Below are positions 1-5,974 of a DNA stretch of 5,974 nt, piece by piece. The DNA comes from a virus. Taxonomy: Duplodnaviria; Heunggongvirae; Uroviricota; Caudoviricetes. The stretch covers positions 1 through 5,974 of IMG/VR virus record IMGVR_UViG_2541047595_000008, one strand, 5' to 3'. The translations under genes and the position numbers were made by a program. The notes under the pieces are model-generated. The model saw nothing but the letters and a program-made list of their open reading frames with translations, was not told the DNA's origin and made no database searches. Numbering within the stretch: position 1 is the first letter of the stretch; the number at the start of each line of letters is the position of its first letter.

Positions 1-411
1 GCAGCATTTTCTTCTGAAATGTATCCCAAACTGGCAAAGGTTTATCCAACGTTAAAATTACCTGATTTACGCGGTGAGTTTATCCGTGGTTGGGATGATG
101 GGCGAGGGATTGACTCTGGTCGCTCTATTTTAAGCGAGCAAGGATATGCAACGGAGGATCATGCTCACGGATTACCGTCAAAATCAACCGTAGCAACTGA
201 CCGCTCAATTAATTTCTACTTTGACGAGGCATGGGCTACTAGTGGTAATACGGGAGTTATCAGATGGGGGAACACAAGCGATGCAGGATTGCCAGCCCCT
301 AATTATGGAACTTTTAAAACATATAAACAGTCCGTAGCTAATTTAGGTACTGCTGGCTTAGAAACCCGCCCTCGTAATATTGCATTTAATTATATTGTGA
401 GGGCGGATTAA
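1..411 (+). CDS. Tail-fibre C-terminal variable domain Sv0 (5'-partial; gene continues upstream of window); probably the currently expressed variant
   Basis: Frame 1 is open from base 1 (AAFSSEMYPKLAKVYPTLKLPDLRGEFIRGWDDGRGIDSGR...) to TAA at 409..411. It carries the same conserved N-block and the same C-terminal tail (ETRPRNIAFNYIVRAD) as the minus-strand cassettes. The ORF-track start at 19 is an internal Met. Confidence 0.8.
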   Translation, partial: AAFSSEMYPKLAKVYPTLKLPDLRGEFIRGWDDGRGIDSGRSILSEQGYATEDHAHGLPSKSTVATDRSINFYFDEAWATSGNTGVIRWGNTSDAGLPAPNYGTFKTYKQSVANLGTAGLETRPRNIAFNYIVRAD

Positions 412-416
412 TTATA

Positions 417-1028
417 TCAACTGGCTGTAGAAAGTTGTTTTTCAGGCCAGTTGAGATCTGGTGCCGTGGTTAAATCCATCGCGTTCAGCTCGTCTATATA
501 ATCTAGCACGGAGTTAAGCTGCGTGGTTTCTGCCTGCGTCAACTTCCGTCCAGCCCGTAATTTCAACTGAATCAGACTAATGGAATCCATCGCAGTATCA
601 ATCAATGACTGACGTTTTGTTTCTGCTGCCTCTACAGCTGCACTATGTTGAGCCTCAGTATCAACCACCCATTTCTCTCCATCCCATTTGTCGTATGGTG
701 TTAGCGGGGCGATAGTGGTTGTATTTTCCGGATAGTCACCCAACACCGTGATTTCTTCGGGATTCCCAGTGTCAATGCTATAGACAGTTTCGCCACGATG
801 ATCTGGCACATACTCCCATGAACTTAAATCCTCTGAACGGAGAATCGCATAACCTGCTTTATGTGAGCCTGGAGCATCCAAACAAGAATTTGCCGGAATA
901 CCAACGCCAACAGCAAGATATTCAGTTGATGCAGAAATATATTCCCGATTACCACCATCATAGTTATAAACGATAATGTTTCCTGCCTGTATGGCTATAA
1001 GTTCGCTATTTAATATCGCATTATCCAT
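417..1028 (-). CDS. tfa: Tail-fibre assembly protein (Tfa / Mu-U-like chaperone), 203 aa
   Basis: The protein shows the Tfa pattern I recall from lambda Tfa and Mu/P1 U: GIPANS, DHRGETVY, PEN..T, KW.G..WV.DTEA and a C-terminal TAPDLNWP. Its ATG overlaps the stop of cassette A by 1 nt (TAATG on the minus strand). Confidence 0.85.
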   Translation of the reverse strand: MDNAILNSELIAIQAGNIIVYNYDGGNREYISASTEYLAVGVGIPANSCLDAPGSHKAGYAILRSEDLSSWEYVPDHRGETVYSIDTGNPEEITVLGDYPENTTTIAPLTPYDKWDGEKWVVDTEAQHSAAVEAAETKRQSLIDTAMDSISLIQLKLRAGRKLTQAETTQLNSVLDYIDELNAMDLTTAPDLNWPEKQLSTAS

Positions 1029-1486
1029 TATGCTGCTCTCACAATATAATTGAAGGCAATGTTACGTGGGCGGGTTTCATTCCCCCCAGATAACTCCGTT
1101 CTGTATTGACTGGTAAATTTACCATTAATCGCTCCTTCTTGGACGGCGTTATCTGTCGACAACAGACTATCCCCCCCTCTGTCATTTGGCACCAATACCG
1201 TGTTATCCCACGCGTCCCATGACCGAATATTATGATAATGACTTCCTGTTAACCACCCCTGTATGCTTAAGATGACCCTTCCCGCATCCACACCTCGCCC
1301 ATCATCCCAACCACGGATAAACTCACCGCGTAAATCCGGTAATTTATTGGTGGGATAAGCCTTTGCCAGATTTGGGTACTTTTCAGAAGAAAATGCTGCA
1401 CCATTGCATTTCAGCCACCCCGTTGGAGGTGTGGCTGAGGGCCACGGAACAGGTACACCAACGGGCAGCGCCGAGCCTTCTCCTAA
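1028..1486 (-). CDS. Silent tail-fibre C-terminal cassette A (no start codon; coupled to tfa)
   Basis: Manual translation shows the minus-strand frame open from site 1 down to TAA at 1028..1030: LGEGSALPVGVPVPWPSATPPTGWLKCNGAAFSSEKYPNLAKAYPTNKLPDLRGEFIRGWDDGRGVDAGRV...ETRPRNIAFNYIVRAA. The ORF track reports only 1028..1291 because the first usable start codon is an internal GTG. Confidence 0.75.
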   Translation of the reverse strand, partial: LGEGSALPVGVPVPWPSATPPTGWLKCNGAAFSSEKYPNLAKAYPTNKLPDLRGEFIRGWDDGRGVDAGRVILSIQGWLTGSHYHNIRSWDAWDNTVLVPNDRGGDSLLSTDNAVQEGAINGKFTSQYRTELSGGNETRPRNIAFNYIVRAA

Positions 1487-1503
1487 ACCAACGTTTCTAT
1501 GCC
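1478..1503 (-). repeat. Invertase crossover site 1 (hix/gix/cix-like, 26 bp)
   Basis: ttctcctaaacc-aa-cgtttctatgcc. Two imperfect inverted 12-bp half-sites flank a central AA dinucleotide. The aaacc-aa-cgttt core matches my recollection of hixL (AAACC-AA-GGTTT). It sits at the 5' boundary of cassette A. Confidence 0.7.
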
Positions 1504-1958
1504 GCTCTTACGATGTAATTAAATGCAATATTACGGGGGCGAGCTGATACATAAGCCCACCAGTCATATTTTTTGGCACCTTTACTGGATGCATCAAATA
1601 TCCACTTTTTGCCATTTATGGCCCCCCATTGATTAGAGGTTAAAGTGTCACCAAATCCGTATTGTGTTGAGCTGAGTGAACTGATATCCCCAGTATCATT
1701 ATCATCAAAACCGGAGACGATAGTGCCTTCCTGAAATGAAAGTATCTCTCGTCCTGCATCAATACCTCGTCCGTCATCCCAGCCACGGATAAATTCGCCC
1801 CGTAAATCCGGTAATTTATTGGTCGGATAAGCCTTTGCCAGCCTGGGGTACATTTCAGAAGAAAATGCTGCTCCGTTACATTTCAGCCAGCCCGTTGGTG
1901 GTGTGGCTGAGGGCCACGGAACGGGCACACCAACAGGCAGTGCAGAGCCTTCCCCCAA
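1497..1958 (-). CDS. Silent tail-fibre C-terminal cassette B
   Basis: 153-aa ORF. The apparent start is a TTG lying inside crossover site 2. It has the conserved N-block (GEGSALPVGVPVPWPSATPPTGWLKCNGAAFSSEMYP...KLPDLRGEFIRGWDDGRG), a unique middle and the invariant C-terminal RPRNIAFNYIVRAA. Confidence 0.75.
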   Translation of the reverse strand: MGEGSALPVGVPVPWPSATPPTGWLKCNGAAFSSEMYPRLAKAYPTNKLPDLRGEFIRGWDDGRGIDAGREILSFQEGTIVSGFDDNDTGDISSLSSTQYGFGDTLTSNQWGAINGKKWIFDASSKGAKKYDWWAYVSARPRNIAFNYIVRAA

Positions 1959-1975
1959 ACCAACGTTTTTATGTG
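1950..1975 (-). repeat. Invertase crossover site 2
   Basis: ttcccccaaacc-aa-cgtttttatgtg. The stop codon of cassette C (plus-strand tta at 1969..1971) is embedded in the outer half-site. Confidence 0.7.
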
Positions 1976-2472
1976 GCCCTTACAATGTAATTAAAAGCAA
2001 CGTTGCGGGGGCGCATTGATATCCATGCCCCGGTAAAATTATCCTCTGCCGTCCTTTGAGTGCCTGTTATGGAGTTATCTGATGATGCTGGAACATAATC
2101 GCTATTATCTCCTGCTTTAGGATTAGCAGGGTTTCCAACAGTTATAACAGAATCAGCAGTAGCATAAGCGATACCTACTTTGACATTAGTAGTCAGATCG
2201 ACACCGTAATAATCCTGCAAAGCTGTACGAATAAATGTTGCAGTCTGACCACTTAGCAATGAACGCCCTGTATCAATCCCTCTCGAATCATCCCAACCAC
2301 GGATAAACTCACCGCGTAAATCAGGTAATTTTAACGTTGGGTAAACCTTTGCCAGATTTGGGTACTTTTCAGAAGAAAATGCTGCTCCGTTACATTTCAG
2401 CCACCCCGTTGGTGGTGTGGCGGAGGGCCACGGAACAGGTACACCAACGGGCAGTGCCGAGCCTTCCCCTAA
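1969..2472 (-). CDS. Silent tail-fibre C-terminal cassette C
   Basis: Manual translation shows the frame open from site 3 to the stop at 1969: LGEGSALPVGVPVPWPSATPPTGWLKCNGAAFSSEKYPNLAKVYPTLKLPDLRGEFIRGWDDSRGIDTGRSLLSGQTATF...RPRNVAFNYIVRAT. The ORF track shows only 1969..2259 because no start codon lies upstream of the TTG at 2259. Confidence 0.75.
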   Translation of the reverse strand, partial: LGEGSALPVGVPVPWPSATPPTGWLKCNGAAFSSEKYPNLAKVYPTLKLPDLRGEFIRGWDDSRGIDTGRSLLSGQTATFIRTALQDYYGVDLTTNVKVGIAYATADSVITVGNPANPKAGDNSDYVPASSDNSITGTQRTAEDNFTGAWISMRPRNVAFNYIVRAT

Positions 2473-2489
2473 ACCAACGTTTTTATGCC
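2464..2489 (-). repeat. Invertase crossover site 3
   Basis: ttcccctaaacc-aa-cgtttttatgcc. Confidence 0.7.
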
Positions 2490-2986
2490 GCCCTTACGAT
2501 GTAATTAAATGCAACGTTGCGAGGGCGAGTTTCTGTACCTACATTTCCACTAATTTCACCATAACGTTTAACACTACGAGAGCTAATAGCTCGTAGTGAG
2601 GAAGGCACCTTATGACCGGGTTCGTCCGTTTTAACTATTCCCCCGTCACCGTATGTAGCTAGTATTCCTGGATTGACGCCTTCCCGTGCACTTCCTGCGG
2701 CGAGTCCGTCCCCTGTCCATAATTCCATATAGTGTGCATGGTCCAAAATTGTGTGTGGCTGCCAATTAAGCAAAGCGCGGCCAGCATCCACCCCGCGCCC
2801 ATCATCCCAACCGCGAATAAATTCTCCCCGTAAATCCGGTAATTTATTGGTGGGGTAGGCTTTTGCCAGTTTGGGATACATTTCAGAAGAAAATGCTGCA
2901 CCATTGCATTTCAGCCAGCCCGTTGGTGGTGTTTCTAAGGGCCACGGAACGGGCACGCCAACGGGCAGTGCAGAGCCTTCCCCCAA
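2483..2986 (-). CDS. Silent tail-fibre C-terminal cassette D
   Basis: 167-aa ORF with the conserved N-block (variant WPLETPP), a unique middle and the C-terminal ETRPRNVAFNYIVRAA. Its apparent TTG start lies in site 4. Confidence 0.75.
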   Translation of the reverse strand: MGEGSALPVGVPVPWPLETPPTGWLKCNGAAFSSEMYPKLAKAYPTNKLPDLRGEFIRGWDDGRGVDAGRALLNWQPHTILDHAHYMELWTGDGLAAGSAREGVNPGILATYGDGGIVKTDEPGHKVPSSLRAISSRSVKRYGEISGNVGTETRPRNVAFNYIVRAA

Positions 2987-3003
2987 ACCAACGTTTCTAT
3001 GCC
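2978..3003 (-). repeat. Invertase crossover site 4
   Basis: ttcccccaaacc-aa-cgtttctatgcc. Confidence 0.7.
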
Positions 3004-3428
3004 GCTCTTACGATGTAATTAAATGCAATATTACGAGGGCGAGATTCTCTCCCCCCCACCGAGTTAGTGCTATCCGATCTCTGTTGAATTACTGAGCCAG
3101 AAACATCAGCGGCTAAAAGATAATATCCACCTGTTGTATCAAATCCAGTTTGTGCCCATGTTCTTTCGAAATAATGACTATGTGATTTAAATTCATCTGT
3201 TTGAGTTGATAATAACGCGCGCCCACTATCCACTCCACGCCCATCATCCCAACCACGGATAAACTCACCGCGTAAATCCGGCAATTTATTGGTGGGGTAA
3301 GCCCTTGCCAGATTTGGGTACATTTCAGAAGAAAATGCTGCGCCGTTACATTTCAGCCACCCTGCTGGCGGTGTGGCTGAGGGCCACGGAACAGGCACAC
3401 CAACGGGCAGCGCAGAGCCTTCCCCCAA
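2997..3428 (-). CDS. Silent tail-fibre C-terminal cassette E
   Basis: 143-aa ORF with the conserved N-block (variant PPAGW), a unique middle and the C-terminal SRPRNIAFNYIVRAA. Confidence 0.75.
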   Translation of the reverse strand: MGEGSALPVGVPVPWPSATPPAGWLKCNGAAFSSEMYPNLARAYPTNKLPDLRGEFIRGWDDGRGVDSGRALLSTQTDEFKSHSHYFERTWAQTGFDTTGGYYLLAADVSGSVIQQRSDSTNSVGGRESRPRNIAFNYIVRAA

Positions 3429-3445
3429 ACCAACGTTTTTATGCC
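3420..3445 (-). repeat. Invertase crossover site 5
   Basis: ttcccccaaacc-aa-cgtttttatgcc. Confidence 0.7.
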
Positions 3446-3915
3446 GCCCTTACGATGTAATTAAATGCGATATTTCGTGGACGGGTTTCACTCCCGCCAG
3501 TATTACCAATACTCCCTCGAGAATGAAGTGTCGGTGATGGAATCAAATTCCCTCCTGTATTTGAGGCATCAAGCCCCCGTCCTTGTGTGTATGTTTTTTT
3601 GAAAATTGTCGCCAGCTCCCATTCATCTTTTGTGTCGTAACCATCATTGGCTACAACAATATGTCGGTGCTTTTCCAGCATTCCTGTCTGAATGCTCAAT
3701 AAAGCACGTCCCGCATCCACCCCGCGCCCATCATCCCAGCCGCGAATAAATTCTCCCCGTAAATCCGGTAATTTATTGGTGGGATAAGCCTTTGCCAGCC
3801 TGGGGTACATTTCAGAAGAAAATGCTGCTCCGTTGCATTTTAGCCAGCCTGTTGGCGGAGTGGCTGAGGGCCACGGAACAGGTACGCCAACAGGCAATGC
3901 AGAGCCTTCCCCCAA
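3439..3915 (-). CDS. Silent tail-fibre C-terminal cassette F
   Basis: 158-aa ORF with the conserved N-block, a unique middle and the C-terminal ETRPRNIAFNYIVRAA. Confidence 0.75.
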   Translation of the reverse strand: MGEGSALPVGVPVPWPSATPPTGWLKCNGAAFSSEMYPRLAKAYPTNKLPDLRGEFIRGWDDGRGVDAGRALLSIQTGMLEKHRHIVVANDGYDTKDEWELATIFKKTYTQGRGLDASNTGGNLIPSPTLHSRGSIGNTGGSETRPRNIAFNYIVRAA

Positions 3916-3932
3916 ACCAACGTTTTTATGCC
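3907..3932 (-). repeat. Invertase crossover site 6
   Basis: ttcccccaaacc-aa-cgtttttatgcc, identical to sites 5 and 7. Confidence 0.7.
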
Positions 3933-4393
3933 GCCCTTACGATATAATTAAACGCAATATTACGGGGGCGGGTTTCAGATGCTGTACGAACTGAGCGAGA
4001 GGCGTCGAATGTCCAGTTATAAGCGCCATAACCCTCAATAATTTCCGTTTCCTTTAGGCCTGTAGATAATACTTGACCATGTTGACTAAATGGCCCTGAA
4101 CTAAGTACATCTCTAAAAAGCTGAGTACGCCCGAAAGAACCAACAATATTCTGAATTGCATCATTCTGTGCAGATAATAAATTACGGCCAGAGTCAATCC
4201 CCCGCCCGTCATCCCAGCCGCGAATAAATTCGCCCCGTAGATCCGGCAATTTATTAGTGGGGTAAACCTTTGCCAGATTTGGGTACTTTTCAGAAGAAAA
4301 TGCTGCTCCGTTACATTTCAGCCACCCCGTTGGTGGTGTGGCGGAGGGCCATGGAACAGGTACACCAACGGGCAGTGCCGAGCCTTCCCCCAA
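3926..4393 (-). CDS. Silent tail-fibre C-terminal cassette G
   Basis: 155-aa ORF with the conserved N-block, a unique middle and the C-terminal ETRPRNIAFNYIVRAA. Confidence 0.75.
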   Translation of the reverse strand: MGEGSALPVGVPVPWPSATPPTGWLKCNGAAFSSEKYPNLAKVYPTNKLPDLRGEFIRGWDDGRGIDSGRNLLSAQNDAIQNIVGSFGRTQLFRDVLSSGPFSQHGQVLSTGLKETEIIEGYGAYNWTFDASRSVRTASETRPRNIAFNYIVRAA

Positions 4394-4410
4394 ACCAACG
4401 TTTTTATGCC
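4385..4410 (-). repeat. Invertase crossover site 7
   Basis: ttcccccaaacc-aa-cgtttttatgcc. Confidence 0.7.
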
Positions 4411-4832
4411 GCCCTTACGATGTAATTAAATGCGATATTTCGCGGCCTGACAGCAACAAAATTTATACCATCACCTACAGAGTTACTGGTGAAATTAAAT
4501 CGTGAAAATCCTGGCTGATTTCCGACGATGCCATCATGAAAATTAATTGCGTGCCCCGCACCATCGCCTATATTTCCGGCACGCTGAGAAAAGTTTGTAG
4601 CCTCTTGGCTGCTTAATAATGCTCGCCCATTGTCCACACCTCGTCCATCATCCCAACCTCGAATAAATTCGCCCCGTAGATCCGGCAATTTATTGGTGGG
4701 GTAAACCTTTGCCAGATTTGGGTACTTTTCAGAAGAAAATGCTGCTCCGTTACATTTCAGCCACCCCGTTGGTGGTGTGGCGGAGGGCCATGGAACAGGT
4801 ACACCAACGGGCAGCGCCGAGCCTTCCCCTAA
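4404..4832 (-). CDS. Silent tail-fibre C-terminal cassette H (outermost, next to the invertase)
   Basis: Manual translation from site 8 is open: LGEGSALPVGVPVPWPSATPPTGWLKCNGA... continuing in the same frame into ORF 4404..4688 (LPDLRGEFIRGWDDGRGVDNGR...VRPRNIAFNYIVRAA). The ORF track is shorter because the first start-capable codon is the TTG at 4686..4688. Confidence 0.7.
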   Translation of the reverse strand, partial: LGEGSALPVGVPVPWPSATPPTGWLKCNGAAFSSEKYPNLAKVYPTNKLPDLRGEFIRGWDDGRGVDNGRALLSSQEATNFSQRAGNIGDGAGHAINFHDGIVGNQPGFSRFNFTSNSVGDGINFVAVRPRNIAFNYIVRAA

Positions 4833-4849
4833 ACCAACGTTTTAGTCTT
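4824..4849 (-). repeat. Invertase crossover site 8 (array boundary site)
   Basis: ttcccctaaacc-aa-cgttttagtctt. The inner half-site and core match the other seven. The outer half-site diverges, with no preceding cassette and no embedded stop codon, as expected for the edge of the invertible region. Confidence 0.65.
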
Positions 4850-4886
4850 AATCCCTACCTATACCAACGATGTATTTTTAACTAAA

Positions 4887-4893
4887 CAAAGAG
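4887..4893 (+). promoter_or_regulatory. Ribosome-binding site of the invertase gene
   Basis: aaagagg lies 10 nt upstream of the ATG at 4904. Confidence 0.5.
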
Positions 4894-4903
4894 GTTGTTT
4901 TTC

Positions 4904-5476
4904 ATGCAAATTGGCTACATTCGTGTGTCAACAAATGACCAAAACACAGATTTACAAAGAAATGCACTGAACTGCGCAGGATGTGAACTGATTTTTGAAG
5001 ATAAAATAAGCGGAACAAAGTCAGCCAGACCAGGCTTGAAAAAGCTGCTCAGAACGTTATCAGAAGGAGATACGCTGGTTGTCTGGAAGCTGGATAGGCT
5101 TGGCAGAAGTATGAAACACCTTATCACGCTTATAGAGGAGTTGCGGGAAAAAGGTGTTAATTTCCGTAGTCTGACAGACAGTATTGACACATCAACACCC
5201 ATGGGGCGTTTCTTTTTTCATGTCATGGGTGCTTTAGCAGAAATGGAACGTGAATTAATTGTTGAGAGAACACTGGCCGGACTGGCAGCTGCACGCGAAC
5301 AGGGACGCATTGGCGGACGTCGCCCGAAGTTGACAAAAGAACAACATGAGCAAATAGCGAGGTTGATCGAAAATGGCTACAGCAGGAAACAGTTGGCAAT
5401 TATTTACGATATCGGTGTATCGACGATTTATCGTTATCATCCTGTAGAGAAGCGCCAAACTCAATCTGAGCTGTAA
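4904..5476 (+). CDS. Serine DNA invertase of the Gin/Cin/Hin/Pin/Min family (190 aa)
   Basis: MQIGYIRVSTNDQNTDLQRNAL...TLVVWKLDRLGRSMKHL...SLTDSIDTS.PMGRFFFHVMGALAEMERELI.ERT.AGLAAAR..GRIGGR is close to colinear with Gin and Cin as I recall them. The catalytic Ser is at position 9 and there is a C-terminal HTH (GVSTIYRY). The true start is the ATG at 4904; the ORF-track start is an upstream TTG at 4895. Stop is TAA at 5474..5476. Confidence 0.95.
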   Translation: MQIGYIRVSTNDQNTDLQRNALNCAGCELIFEDKISGTKSARPGLKKLLRTLSEGDTLVVWKLDRLGRSMKHLITLIEELREKGVNFRSLTDSIDTSTPMGRFFFHVMGALAEMERELIVERTLAGLAAAREQGRIGGRRPKLTKEQHEQIARLIENGYSRKQLAIIYDIGVSTIYRYHPVEKRQTQSEL

Positions 5477-5596
5477 TTCTAATGCCGCGTCGGTGTAATT
5501 TATCATGATAGAATAGGTACATTTATCGCGCGGCACATCAATTCGATGTATCTAGCGCCTGCTGACCGCTAATGAAAACTGTTCTCGAAATGTTGT

Positions 5597-5615
5597 CCCT
5601 AGTCCGAGACTAGGG
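5597..5615. other. Perfect 8-bp inverted repeat with a 3-nt loop (ccctagtc-cga-gactaggg)
   Basis: Seen directly in the sequence. No T-tract follows, so it is not a classical intrinsic terminator. It could be a protein-binding palindrome or an RNA hairpin. Confidence 0.25.
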
Positions 5616-5884
5616 TATCACCTCTGGAAAGCATACGCAGAACCTTTTTTAACCCAGGGTGCCCAGCCTTTTTGCTGCTCGCCTTATTCGCAAAAATTAG
5701 CTCACATCCTGCGCTTTCAAGTGCTTTTCACTGCATAGCTGTGTTTTGTTCATTTGTCTATATGCGTACATAGCCTATTAGCATATTTTTTGCCCACTAT
5801 CGTTATTTATTGCAAGCCACAGGTTTTAATTAACAAAACCAGTGTGTGTGGAAATCACAAAGTGCATACCGTTCTCAAATGTTG

Positions 5885-5974
5885 GGCTTTGTTGAATAAA
5901 TCGAACTTTTGCTGAGTTGAAGGATCAGATCACGCATCTTCCCGACAACGCAGACCGTTCCGTGGCAAAGCAAA
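5885..5974. mobile_element. Terminus of an IS903-group (IS5-family) insertion sequence; element continues beyond the window
   Basis: ggctttgttgaataaatc at 5885..5902 matches my recollection of the 18-bp IS903 terminal inverted repeat. The following ~70 bp (gaacttttgctgagttgaaggatcagatcacgcatcttcccgacaacgcagaccgttccgtggcaaagcaaa) matches the IS903 remnant I remember flanking the Tn903 kanamycin cassette in common vectors. This is from memory, not from a search. Confidence 0.6.

Follow-up and report, generated by a model that had tools for sequence, protein, structure and literature searches.

Introduction

In the G segment of phage Mu and the C segment of P1, inversion by Gin or Cin swaps the 3' end of the fibre gene between two convergent alternatives; these systems have two crossover sites and two tips, and each tip has a chaperone gene of its own (U, U'). 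The Min system of p15B, from E. coli 15T-, described by Sandmeier, Iida and Arber between 1990 and 1992, is reported to comprise six sites and six variants in 3.5 kb and to form 240 isomers. In T4 (gp37/gp38) and lambda (Stf/Tfa) one fixed tip is followed directly by one chaperone gene, and in the R64 shufflon the tyrosine recombinase Rci acts on PilV tips, which are pilus adhesins and not phage fibres, in an array without a chaperone gene. The present work concerns a stretch of 5,974 nucleotides (nt), positions 1 to 5,974 of the IMG/VR virus record IMGVR_UViG_2541047595_000008 (Caudoviricetes), hereafter referred to as the window, which by its sequence is a multiple-inversion tail-fibre array of the p15B Min type on a P1-like phage-plasmid. 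In this array a single tail-fibre assembly (chaperone) gene, tfa, accompanies nine alternative fibre tips, named here Sv0 and A to H, which can be joined to the constant part of the fibre gene (Sc).

How this gene is expressed constitutes a real puzzle within a system known since 1990, as roughly one half of the possible arrangements leave tfa pointing against the fibre gene. The reading that we tentatively favour, and to which we give slightly less than an even chance, is that Tfa is a generalist produced only from the fibre transcript when tip A lies in the sense orientation, and that the other isomers, always including the one with the Sc-Sv0 fusion, produce little or none.

Comparison with known inversion systems

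Pieces of the window, in a shuffled order, match P1-like phage-plasmids from E. coli, Klebsiella and Salmonella, and the coordinates of p15B homology given in the P1 record (for the cin-side region and the cin enhancer) map onto the window with a constant offset of 1,539. It shares with p15B Min a P1-related backbone, a Min/Pin-type invertase gene that points away from the array, an adjoining truncated remnant of a second invertase, several co-oriented crossover sites and tips that are fused alternatively to a constant fibre gene, and it differs in having nine tips and nine sites in about 4.9 kb, with 80,640 orders, compared to the six of p15B. The p15B figures given above are exactly those expected from four single cassettes and one Sv0/tfa/A segment of 1.59 kb (5! 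x 2 = 240). The array of the window is a larger member of the known Min type and not a new kind of system. The same Sv0/tfa/A triad is carried by pMCR_SCKP-LL83, reported to be 99% identical to the min region of p15B (PMC5786510). Both the p15B Min identity and the occurrence of the triad in two-tip prophage switches, described below, go beyond what had been read in an earlier note on this DNA, made from its sequence without database searches.

With the Mu and P1 switches, the window has in common the invertase family, a stretch homologous to the enhancer within the invertase gene, the swapping of the 3' end of the fibre gene and the convergence of two alternatives. That Mu and P1 have one chaperone for each fibre variant, as stated in the earlier note, is supported by the P1 annotation; compared to them, the window lacks one of the two convergent chaperone genes and has seven extra tips without a chaperone. 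The classical form, with two convergent tfa genes (138-146 and 200 amino acids) that overlap by 29 bp, was detected in two P1-like plasmids with near-identical flanks, beside tip A in one of them (L002) and beside an A-position tip in the other (L060); therefore, both layouts circulate on the same backbone. T4 gp37/gp38 and lambda Stf/Tfa share with the window the gp37 collar domain, the NIAFNYIVR motif and a Tfa family that includes the lambda Tfa, and the R64 shufflon shares the short 3' cassettes, the multiple inversion and the fusion to one constant gene.

Organization of the Sv0/tfa/A segment

The features of this segment, with the basis for each of them, were as follows:

1 to 411, plus strand: 3' part (codon 33 onward) of the Sv0 tip cassette, with TAA at 409-411 and C-terminus ...RPRNIAFNYIVRAD (open reading frame and translation)
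412 to 416: spacer TTATA, 5 bp, between the convergent stop codons of Sv0 and tfa (sequence; same spacing in 10/10 loci compared)
417 to 1028, minus strand: tfa, 203 amino acids, the sole tail-fibre assembly (chaperone) gene (Pfam Caudo_TAP, E = 3e-30)
417 to 453: hairpin at the Sv0/tfa junction, in which the tfa codons for LNWP pair with the last tfa codons and the stop (folding)
1028 to 1495, minus strand: tip cassette A, with 155 codons counted from NVG; no other tip is translationally coupled to tfa (open reading frame, Pfam and frame)

The Tfa protein scored 105.4 bits against PF02413 (Caudo_TAP), for which the cut-off is 22.1. Caudo_TAP_N and Caudo_TAP are both listed for it among precomputed assignments, and either half can be the better conserved among its relatives. 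No solved structure related to Tfa by sequence was found. The stop of tip A and the start of tfa overlap as TAATG, with base 1028 in common, confirming the coupling of tfa to cassette A proposed earlier from this overlap, and a GAGAG Shine-Dalgarno-like motif lies within the final codons of A, ahead of tfa. Tip A is the only one with tfa directly downstream and in the same orientation; this is not so for Sv0 or for B to H.

The earlier note had also proposed that Sv0 and tfa converge with 5 bp between their stop codons and are permanently linked in opposite orientation. The sequence bears this out, as there is no crossover site between them, and a scan of positions 1-1477 on both strands revealed nothing within 9/26 mismatches of the site or within 2/12 of its core, that is, no site in or beside tfa. 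A single tfa for nine tips was likewise found: neither the list of open reading frames nor the Pfam search revealed a second Tfa-like reading frame elsewhere in the window, and the relatives have Sc or another tip upstream of Sv0, never a tfa. Moreover, a single place homologous to tfa was detected in 59/60 complete plasmids carrying this tfa (tblastn, E <= 1e-3), which largely excludes, for the element itself, the earlier suggestion that Tfa is supplied elsewhere.

The window opens 32 codons into Sv0, so that Sc and the ninth crossover site, which is oppositely oriented, lie outside it. Therefore, with no visible Sc junction at the window start, it is an assumption that Sv0 is the tip currently expressed. 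The truncated Sv0 piece reads open from base 1 and gave a weak match to the Pfam Collar domain; in the relatives L004-L014 the full-length Sv0 was read as 168 codons.

The hairpin at the junction has a centroid energy of -18.4 kcal/mol in the window, and for a 76-nt stretch spanning the junction the minimum free energies were -24 kcal/mol on the plus strand (z = -3.1) and -17.9 kcal/mol on the minus strand (z = -4.4). It is partly conserved, with a G-U pair or one mismatch, in the lineages with 83% and 56% identical Tfa that share the layout with one tfa (see below). Tfa is 203-204 residues long in all three of these one-tfa lineages, and its extra C-terminal codons form the hairpin arm that pairs with the LNWP codons. 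No U-tract follows the hairpin, which could act as a barrier or a stabiliser between the convergent genes.

Isomers and the triad in relatives

The exact Tfa protein was found in 4,053 blocks of the public collection, and the context of the triad was read in ten of them. In all ten (10/10) the triad was invariant, with A leading through a one-base overlap into tfa and Sv0 converging on it at 5 bp; with the other loci counted, it is unchanged in more than 10 relatives. The triad occurs in P1-like plasmids whose arrays number from 2 up to 9 or more cassettes; a shared pool of at least eleven distinct cassettes supplies these arrays, each of which has one tfa. It also occurs, together with the invertase, in the chromosomal prophages L006 and L009 (9051-11759), located behind P2-type baseplate genes and with A and Sv0 as the only tips. 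These prophage copies are 99.7% identical to the window, closer than most of the P1-like copies. The presence of the same triad on P2-type and P1-like backbones indicates that the module moves between unrelated phages.

Ten different orders and orientations were observed among otherwise near-identical elements (L001-L013, L058, L059). The cassettes located between Sc and the triad point with Sc and those beyond the triad point against it, the triad itself lying either way. Thus, tfa is sense to Sc in L004, L005, L007 and L013, and antisense in L001, L008, L010, L011, L058 and L059; among the latter, Sv0 is fused to Sc in L008 and L010 and lies behind other plus-strand tips in L001, L011, L058 and L059. 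The tips seen fused to Sc in the relatives were A, D, F, H and Sv0. When the two junctions of the triad were counted in plasmid records, Sc-Sv0 and Sc-A appeared 17 vs. 17 times, these counts being approximate because BLAST pieces were joined. The antisense state detected in six relatives and the equal junction counts show that this state is common and not peculiar to the window. The expectation of the earlier note, that inversion at any of sites 1-8 brings tfa into the orientation of the expressed tip, is also supported, the partner in such an inversion being the Sc site.

The Sv0/tfa/A block was also found as tiny separate records (CP088785.1, 2,058 bp; NZ_CP148414.1, 2,415 bp; NZ_CP142924.1, 2,021 bp; and contig L014, 1,695 bp), most likely assembly artefacts arising from the presence of both block orientations in the sequenced culture. 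Polymorphism among 13 copies of the triad amounted to only 2-3 changes per unique part, which gives no power to test purifying selection on Sv0.

The convergent layout with one tfa, in which a tip is followed by tfa and, 5-12 nt further on, by a chaperone-less tip in the opposite direction, recurs in two diverged lineages. In one of them Tfa is 82-83% identical to that of the window and the convergent tip is different (L067, L082, L085, L130); in the other, the P2-type prophage L090, Tfa is 56% identical. This persistence argues that the orphan position of the convergent tip is tolerated or functional.

In six Photorhabdus loci (L023, L025-L028 and L035; about 5000-6600), two collar-type tips were found in tandem before one tfa, the upstream tip lacking a dedicated chaperone gene. 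In L025-L028 and L035 tfa is followed, at a distance of about 700 bp, by an invertase fragment; no invertase match was obtained in L023. These tandem tips are a distant parallel to the Min-type arrays.

Association of related tips with Tfa

That Sv0 may need no Tfa, one of the explanations offered earlier, is disfavoured by the comparison with tips of the same type. In loci found through relatives of Tfa with 36-78% identity, from Escherichia, Kluyvera, Photorhabdus, Pantoea, Erwinia and others, a collar-type tip was located directly upstream of tfa in 33/33 cases, with overlap of the stop and start codons in 30 of the 33, and a GAGG motif within the VRA codons (GAGAG in tip A of the window) preceded the start of tfa in most of them. 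In a second set of 80 viral loci, found through the tip and therefore not biased towards tfa, a co-oriented tfa opened at the stop codon of the tip in about 68, including 7/8 of the Sv0-like tips, whose Tfa N-domains are 63-77% identical to that of the window. The variable parts of D, E and F are 95-98% identical to those of tips that have their own tfa elsewhere, with lower values for H (89%) and Sv0 (73-76%). From these counts and matches it follows that such tips are normally coupled to a chaperone and that the cassettes of the array look stripped of theirs.

Whether one Tfa could serve all of these tips was approached through the pairings found elsewhere. Tfa N-domains 72-77% identical to that of the window are coupled to tips whose variable parts are unrelated (19-27% identical), and within one cluster of Tfa N-domains, members with at least 90% identity are coupled in cis to 6 unrelated tip types, and those with at least 80% identity to 14. 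The pairing of related Tfa proteins with many unrelated tips makes a generalist chaperone plausible and suggests recognition of a conserved part of the tip that is common to all nine tips of the window. In the accepted modular model of Tfa, outlined in PMC9608196 (citing North 2019), a variable N-domain binds the fibre and a conserved C-domain trimerises.

Search for a promoter of tfa

The remaining explanation of the earlier note, a promoter dedicated to tfa, received no sequence support. A scan for sigma-70 promoters detected fewer sites than expected by chance and none upstream of tfa. With a weight matrix, the best score (8.6, in cassette A) equalled the mean best score of shuffled sequences, with a 95th percentile of 11.3, and no candidate above chance appeared in any of the four lineages analysed (the window and three others). 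The late-promoter motif of P1, AAGTTACTT-N4-TANNAT, as read from the annotated promoters LPs and LPdar, gave only chance-level matches with 3 mismatches, none of them upstream of tfa.

Proposed mechanism and alternatives

According to the reading favoured here, a serine invertase would recombine nine 26-bp sites, such that one of nine tips, all of them promoterless and start-less, becomes joined to the constant fibre gene in the correct reading frame. Seven single-ended segments (B to H) and one double-ended central segment, Sv0-> <-tfa <-A, bearing the only tfa, make up the array, and from this composition the number of orders given above, (7+1)! x 2, follows. We infer that Tfa acts as a generalist, which would read the common collar part and the C-terminal ...RPRNIAFNYIVRA strand and not the variable receptor-binding insert, so that one copy could serve every tip. 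It would be made from the late fibre transcript when the central segment lies in the sense of A, with translation through coupling to A or from its own Shine-Dalgarno motif. In the opposite orientation, which applies always to Sc-Sv0 and to half of the orders for B to H, tfa is off the fibre transcript. Such antisense isomers would then produce fibres with little or no Tfa that assemble poorly, a roughly two-fold loss that may be tolerated as the price of compact shuffling.

Several points weigh against this proposal. The recurrence of the layout with one tfa and the 4,053 blocks with this Tfa suggest that a supply independent of orientation would fit better than a tolerated defect, and the persistence of the layout suggests that the orphan position is not a dead end. 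The universality of Tfa is not assured either, as the relative of tip H that is coupled in cis (L021) has a Tfa N-domain only 33% identical to that of the window. In addition, the promoter scans described above could have missed weak or unconventional promoters.

In the first alternative, a promoter of that kind, located within the invertible DNA (in tip A or in the conserved 5' part of the cassettes), would express tfa in both orientations and all nine tips would be served. We regard this as rather unlikely, though it would agree with the persistence of the layout in three diverged Tfa lineages and with the equal frequency of Sc-Sv0 and Sc-A junctions, and an independent start would help in those sense isomers that can place tfa behind up to 3.3 kb of untranslated cassettes. 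A possible cryptic promoter, CTGGCA-N17-TAAATT, lies some 340 nt ahead of tfa and recurs in each of the cassettes, but it was rejected as evidence: its score of 8.6 is that of the shuffled mean best, it is accounted for by the codons for LAKAYPTNKLPD, and it is also present in fused, stand-alone tips and missing from the L090 lineage despite the same layout. The comparison of the motif between array cassettes and fused tips is itself confounded by relatedness and by the amino acid sequence. Neither a P1 late-promoter motif nor anything above chance in four lineages assists this explanation, and a weak promoter would suffer interference from late transcription of Sc-Sv0 running towards it.

A different solution would be that Tfa serves tip A alone and that Sv0, and perhaps B to H, fold without it. 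The coupling of tfa only to A would agree with this, as would the fact that B to H were never found with a tfa of their own in any array and the behaviour of T4 gp12, a protein that has this collar domain and C-terminal motif and is not known to use gp38. However, nearly all stand-alone tips of such type have their own overlapping tfa, including 7/8 of the Sv0-like tips, with Tfa N-domains close to that of the window, and D, E and F are almost identical to tips coupled to Tfa elsewhere, making this solution improbable. We consider still less probable a supply in trans, either by prophages of the host or by a minority of plasmid copies flipped during lytic replication. Prophages of E. coli often carry related tfa genes (52-78% identity), and closely related Tfa proteins pair with many tip types, but the element has no second copy, the late genes of a resident prophage are not expected to be on during P1-type lytic growth, and dependence on the host would make such a supply unreliable. 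As for flipped copies, inversion by Gin and Cin is slow, and at the slow rates of this invertase family such copies would be rare.

Finally, the orientation of the segment could be a second, hidden switch that decides whether Tfa is made, a variant that we also consider improbable. According to PMC9608196 (citing North 2019, North and Davidson 2021), Tfa of the Mu type stays on the mature fibre and contributes to host recognition; from this retention, a hidden switch could gate infectivity on or off or, alternatively, widen the receptor repertoire, roughly doubling it. In that case tips B to H would each come in two versions, with and without Tfa, and Sv0 only in the version without it.

Implications

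If a single Tfa does mature at least nine tips whose inserts are unrelated, what it reads must be the conserved collar and C-terminal part, and a generalist of this kind would provide a simple rule for the construction of chimeric fibres in phage or phagemid retargeting without a chaperone swap. The array offers a natural test bed for it, as tips that go without a Tfa of their own here have one in other prophages. The antisense problem concerns what share of the theoretical diversity generated by shuffling is infectious, and it is relevant to the prediction of host range for P1-like phage-plasmids, among them some with resistance genes, such as pMCR_SCKP-LL83 with mcr-1. Should the answer be only a weak internal promoter or a tolerated two-fold loss, it would be a detail of a known system.

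Tip cassettes and crossover sites

The remainder of the array contains the following features:

1497 to 4841, minus strand: seven tfa-less tip cassettes, head to tail with 1-nt gaps, in frame and intact
1497 to 1967, minus strand: cassette B
1969 to 2481, minus strand: cassette C
2483 to 2995, minus strand: cassette D
2997 to 3437, minus strand: cassette E
3439 to 3924, minus strand: cassette F
3926 to 4402, minus strand: cassette G
4404 to 4841, minus strand: cassette H
1478 to 1503, plus strand: crossover site 1, 26 bp, with AA centre (site scan)
starts at 1950, 2464, 2978, 3420, 3907, 4385 and 4824, plus strand: crossover sites 2-8, in the same orientation as site 1 (site scan)

The eight minus-strand tips, A to H, are all intact and keep a single reading frame from the site (NVGLGEGSALPVG..., NVGLGEGS...) to ...RPRNIAFNYIVRAA-stop, and all cassettes are open from the crossover site onward, which makes an in-frame fusion to Sc possible. 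The Pfam Collar domain was detected with E of about 1e-15 in the five complete tips tested (A, B, C, D and H), and E, F and G have the same conserved N-terminal sequence as these. As in tips of the gp37 type, the collar domain is accompanied by a conserved C-terminal ...RPRNIAFNYIVR strand. A search with tip A gave alignments to the T4 gp37 tip (2XGF) and to gp12 chains, including the C-terminal NIAFNYIVR motif. The GC skew of the silent cassettes is modest.

A His-x-His motif is located soon after the collar part in five tips, A, D, E, F and Sv0 (SHYHN, DHAHY, SHSHY, KHRHI and DHAHG), and is missing from B, C, G and H. It resembles the metal-binding needle of T4 gp37, and its presence in five tips and absence from four suggests that two structural classes of tip coexist in one array.

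The crossover sites have the consensus TTCCCCCAAACCAACGTTTTTATGCC, of the form TTCCCCCAAACC-AA-CGTTTTTATGCC, and were found in 8 copies against a chance expectation of 0, each of them at the 5' end of its cassette. In sites 1-7 (1478-4410) the right half (CGTTTTTATGCC) corresponds, as its reverse complement, to the final codons and stop (GGC ATA A..) of the cassette before it, so that each internal site consists of the 3' end of one cassette joined to the 5' end of the following one. The position of this right half-site is taken, in stand-alone tips, by the TAATG junction with tfa.

Invertase and right-hand flank

Two invertase genes, one of them a remnant, follow the array:

4904 to 5476, plus strand: serine DNA invertase of the Min/Cin/Gin/Pin family, 190 amino acids (Pfam Resolvase, E = 2e-51, and HTH_7)
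5602 to 5784, minus strand: remnant of a second invertase (MLIGYVRI*TNEQNTAMQ*KALESAGCELIF...GDTLV)

The complete invertase is 74% identical to P1 Cin, and positions 4922-4993, in the 5' part of its gene, align with the annotated recombinational enhancer of P1 cin with roughly 80% identity. The remnant is Cin-like, has two in-frame stops and ends after about 60 codons, with an 89% match to the upstream and 5' region of P1 cin; it is probably the inactive 'win' pseudogene of p15B. The promoter of the remnant (5785-5860) was considered as a driver of minus-strand transcription into tfa and set aside, since it lies about 4.7 kb away and runs against the invertase gene; it is further disfavoured by being missing from the two-tip prophage modules that present the same tfa puzzle.

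Positions 5608-5873 match the region beside P1 cin. The homology with P1-like plasmids ends at 5884, and the last 90 bases (5885-5974) match more than 5,000 plasmid records, mostly of Klebsiella, and presumably correspond to the terminal inverted repeat end of IS903; the junction with this insertion sequence was found in no plasmid record. The insertion at the right end of the window replaces the holin genes that are present there in relatives.

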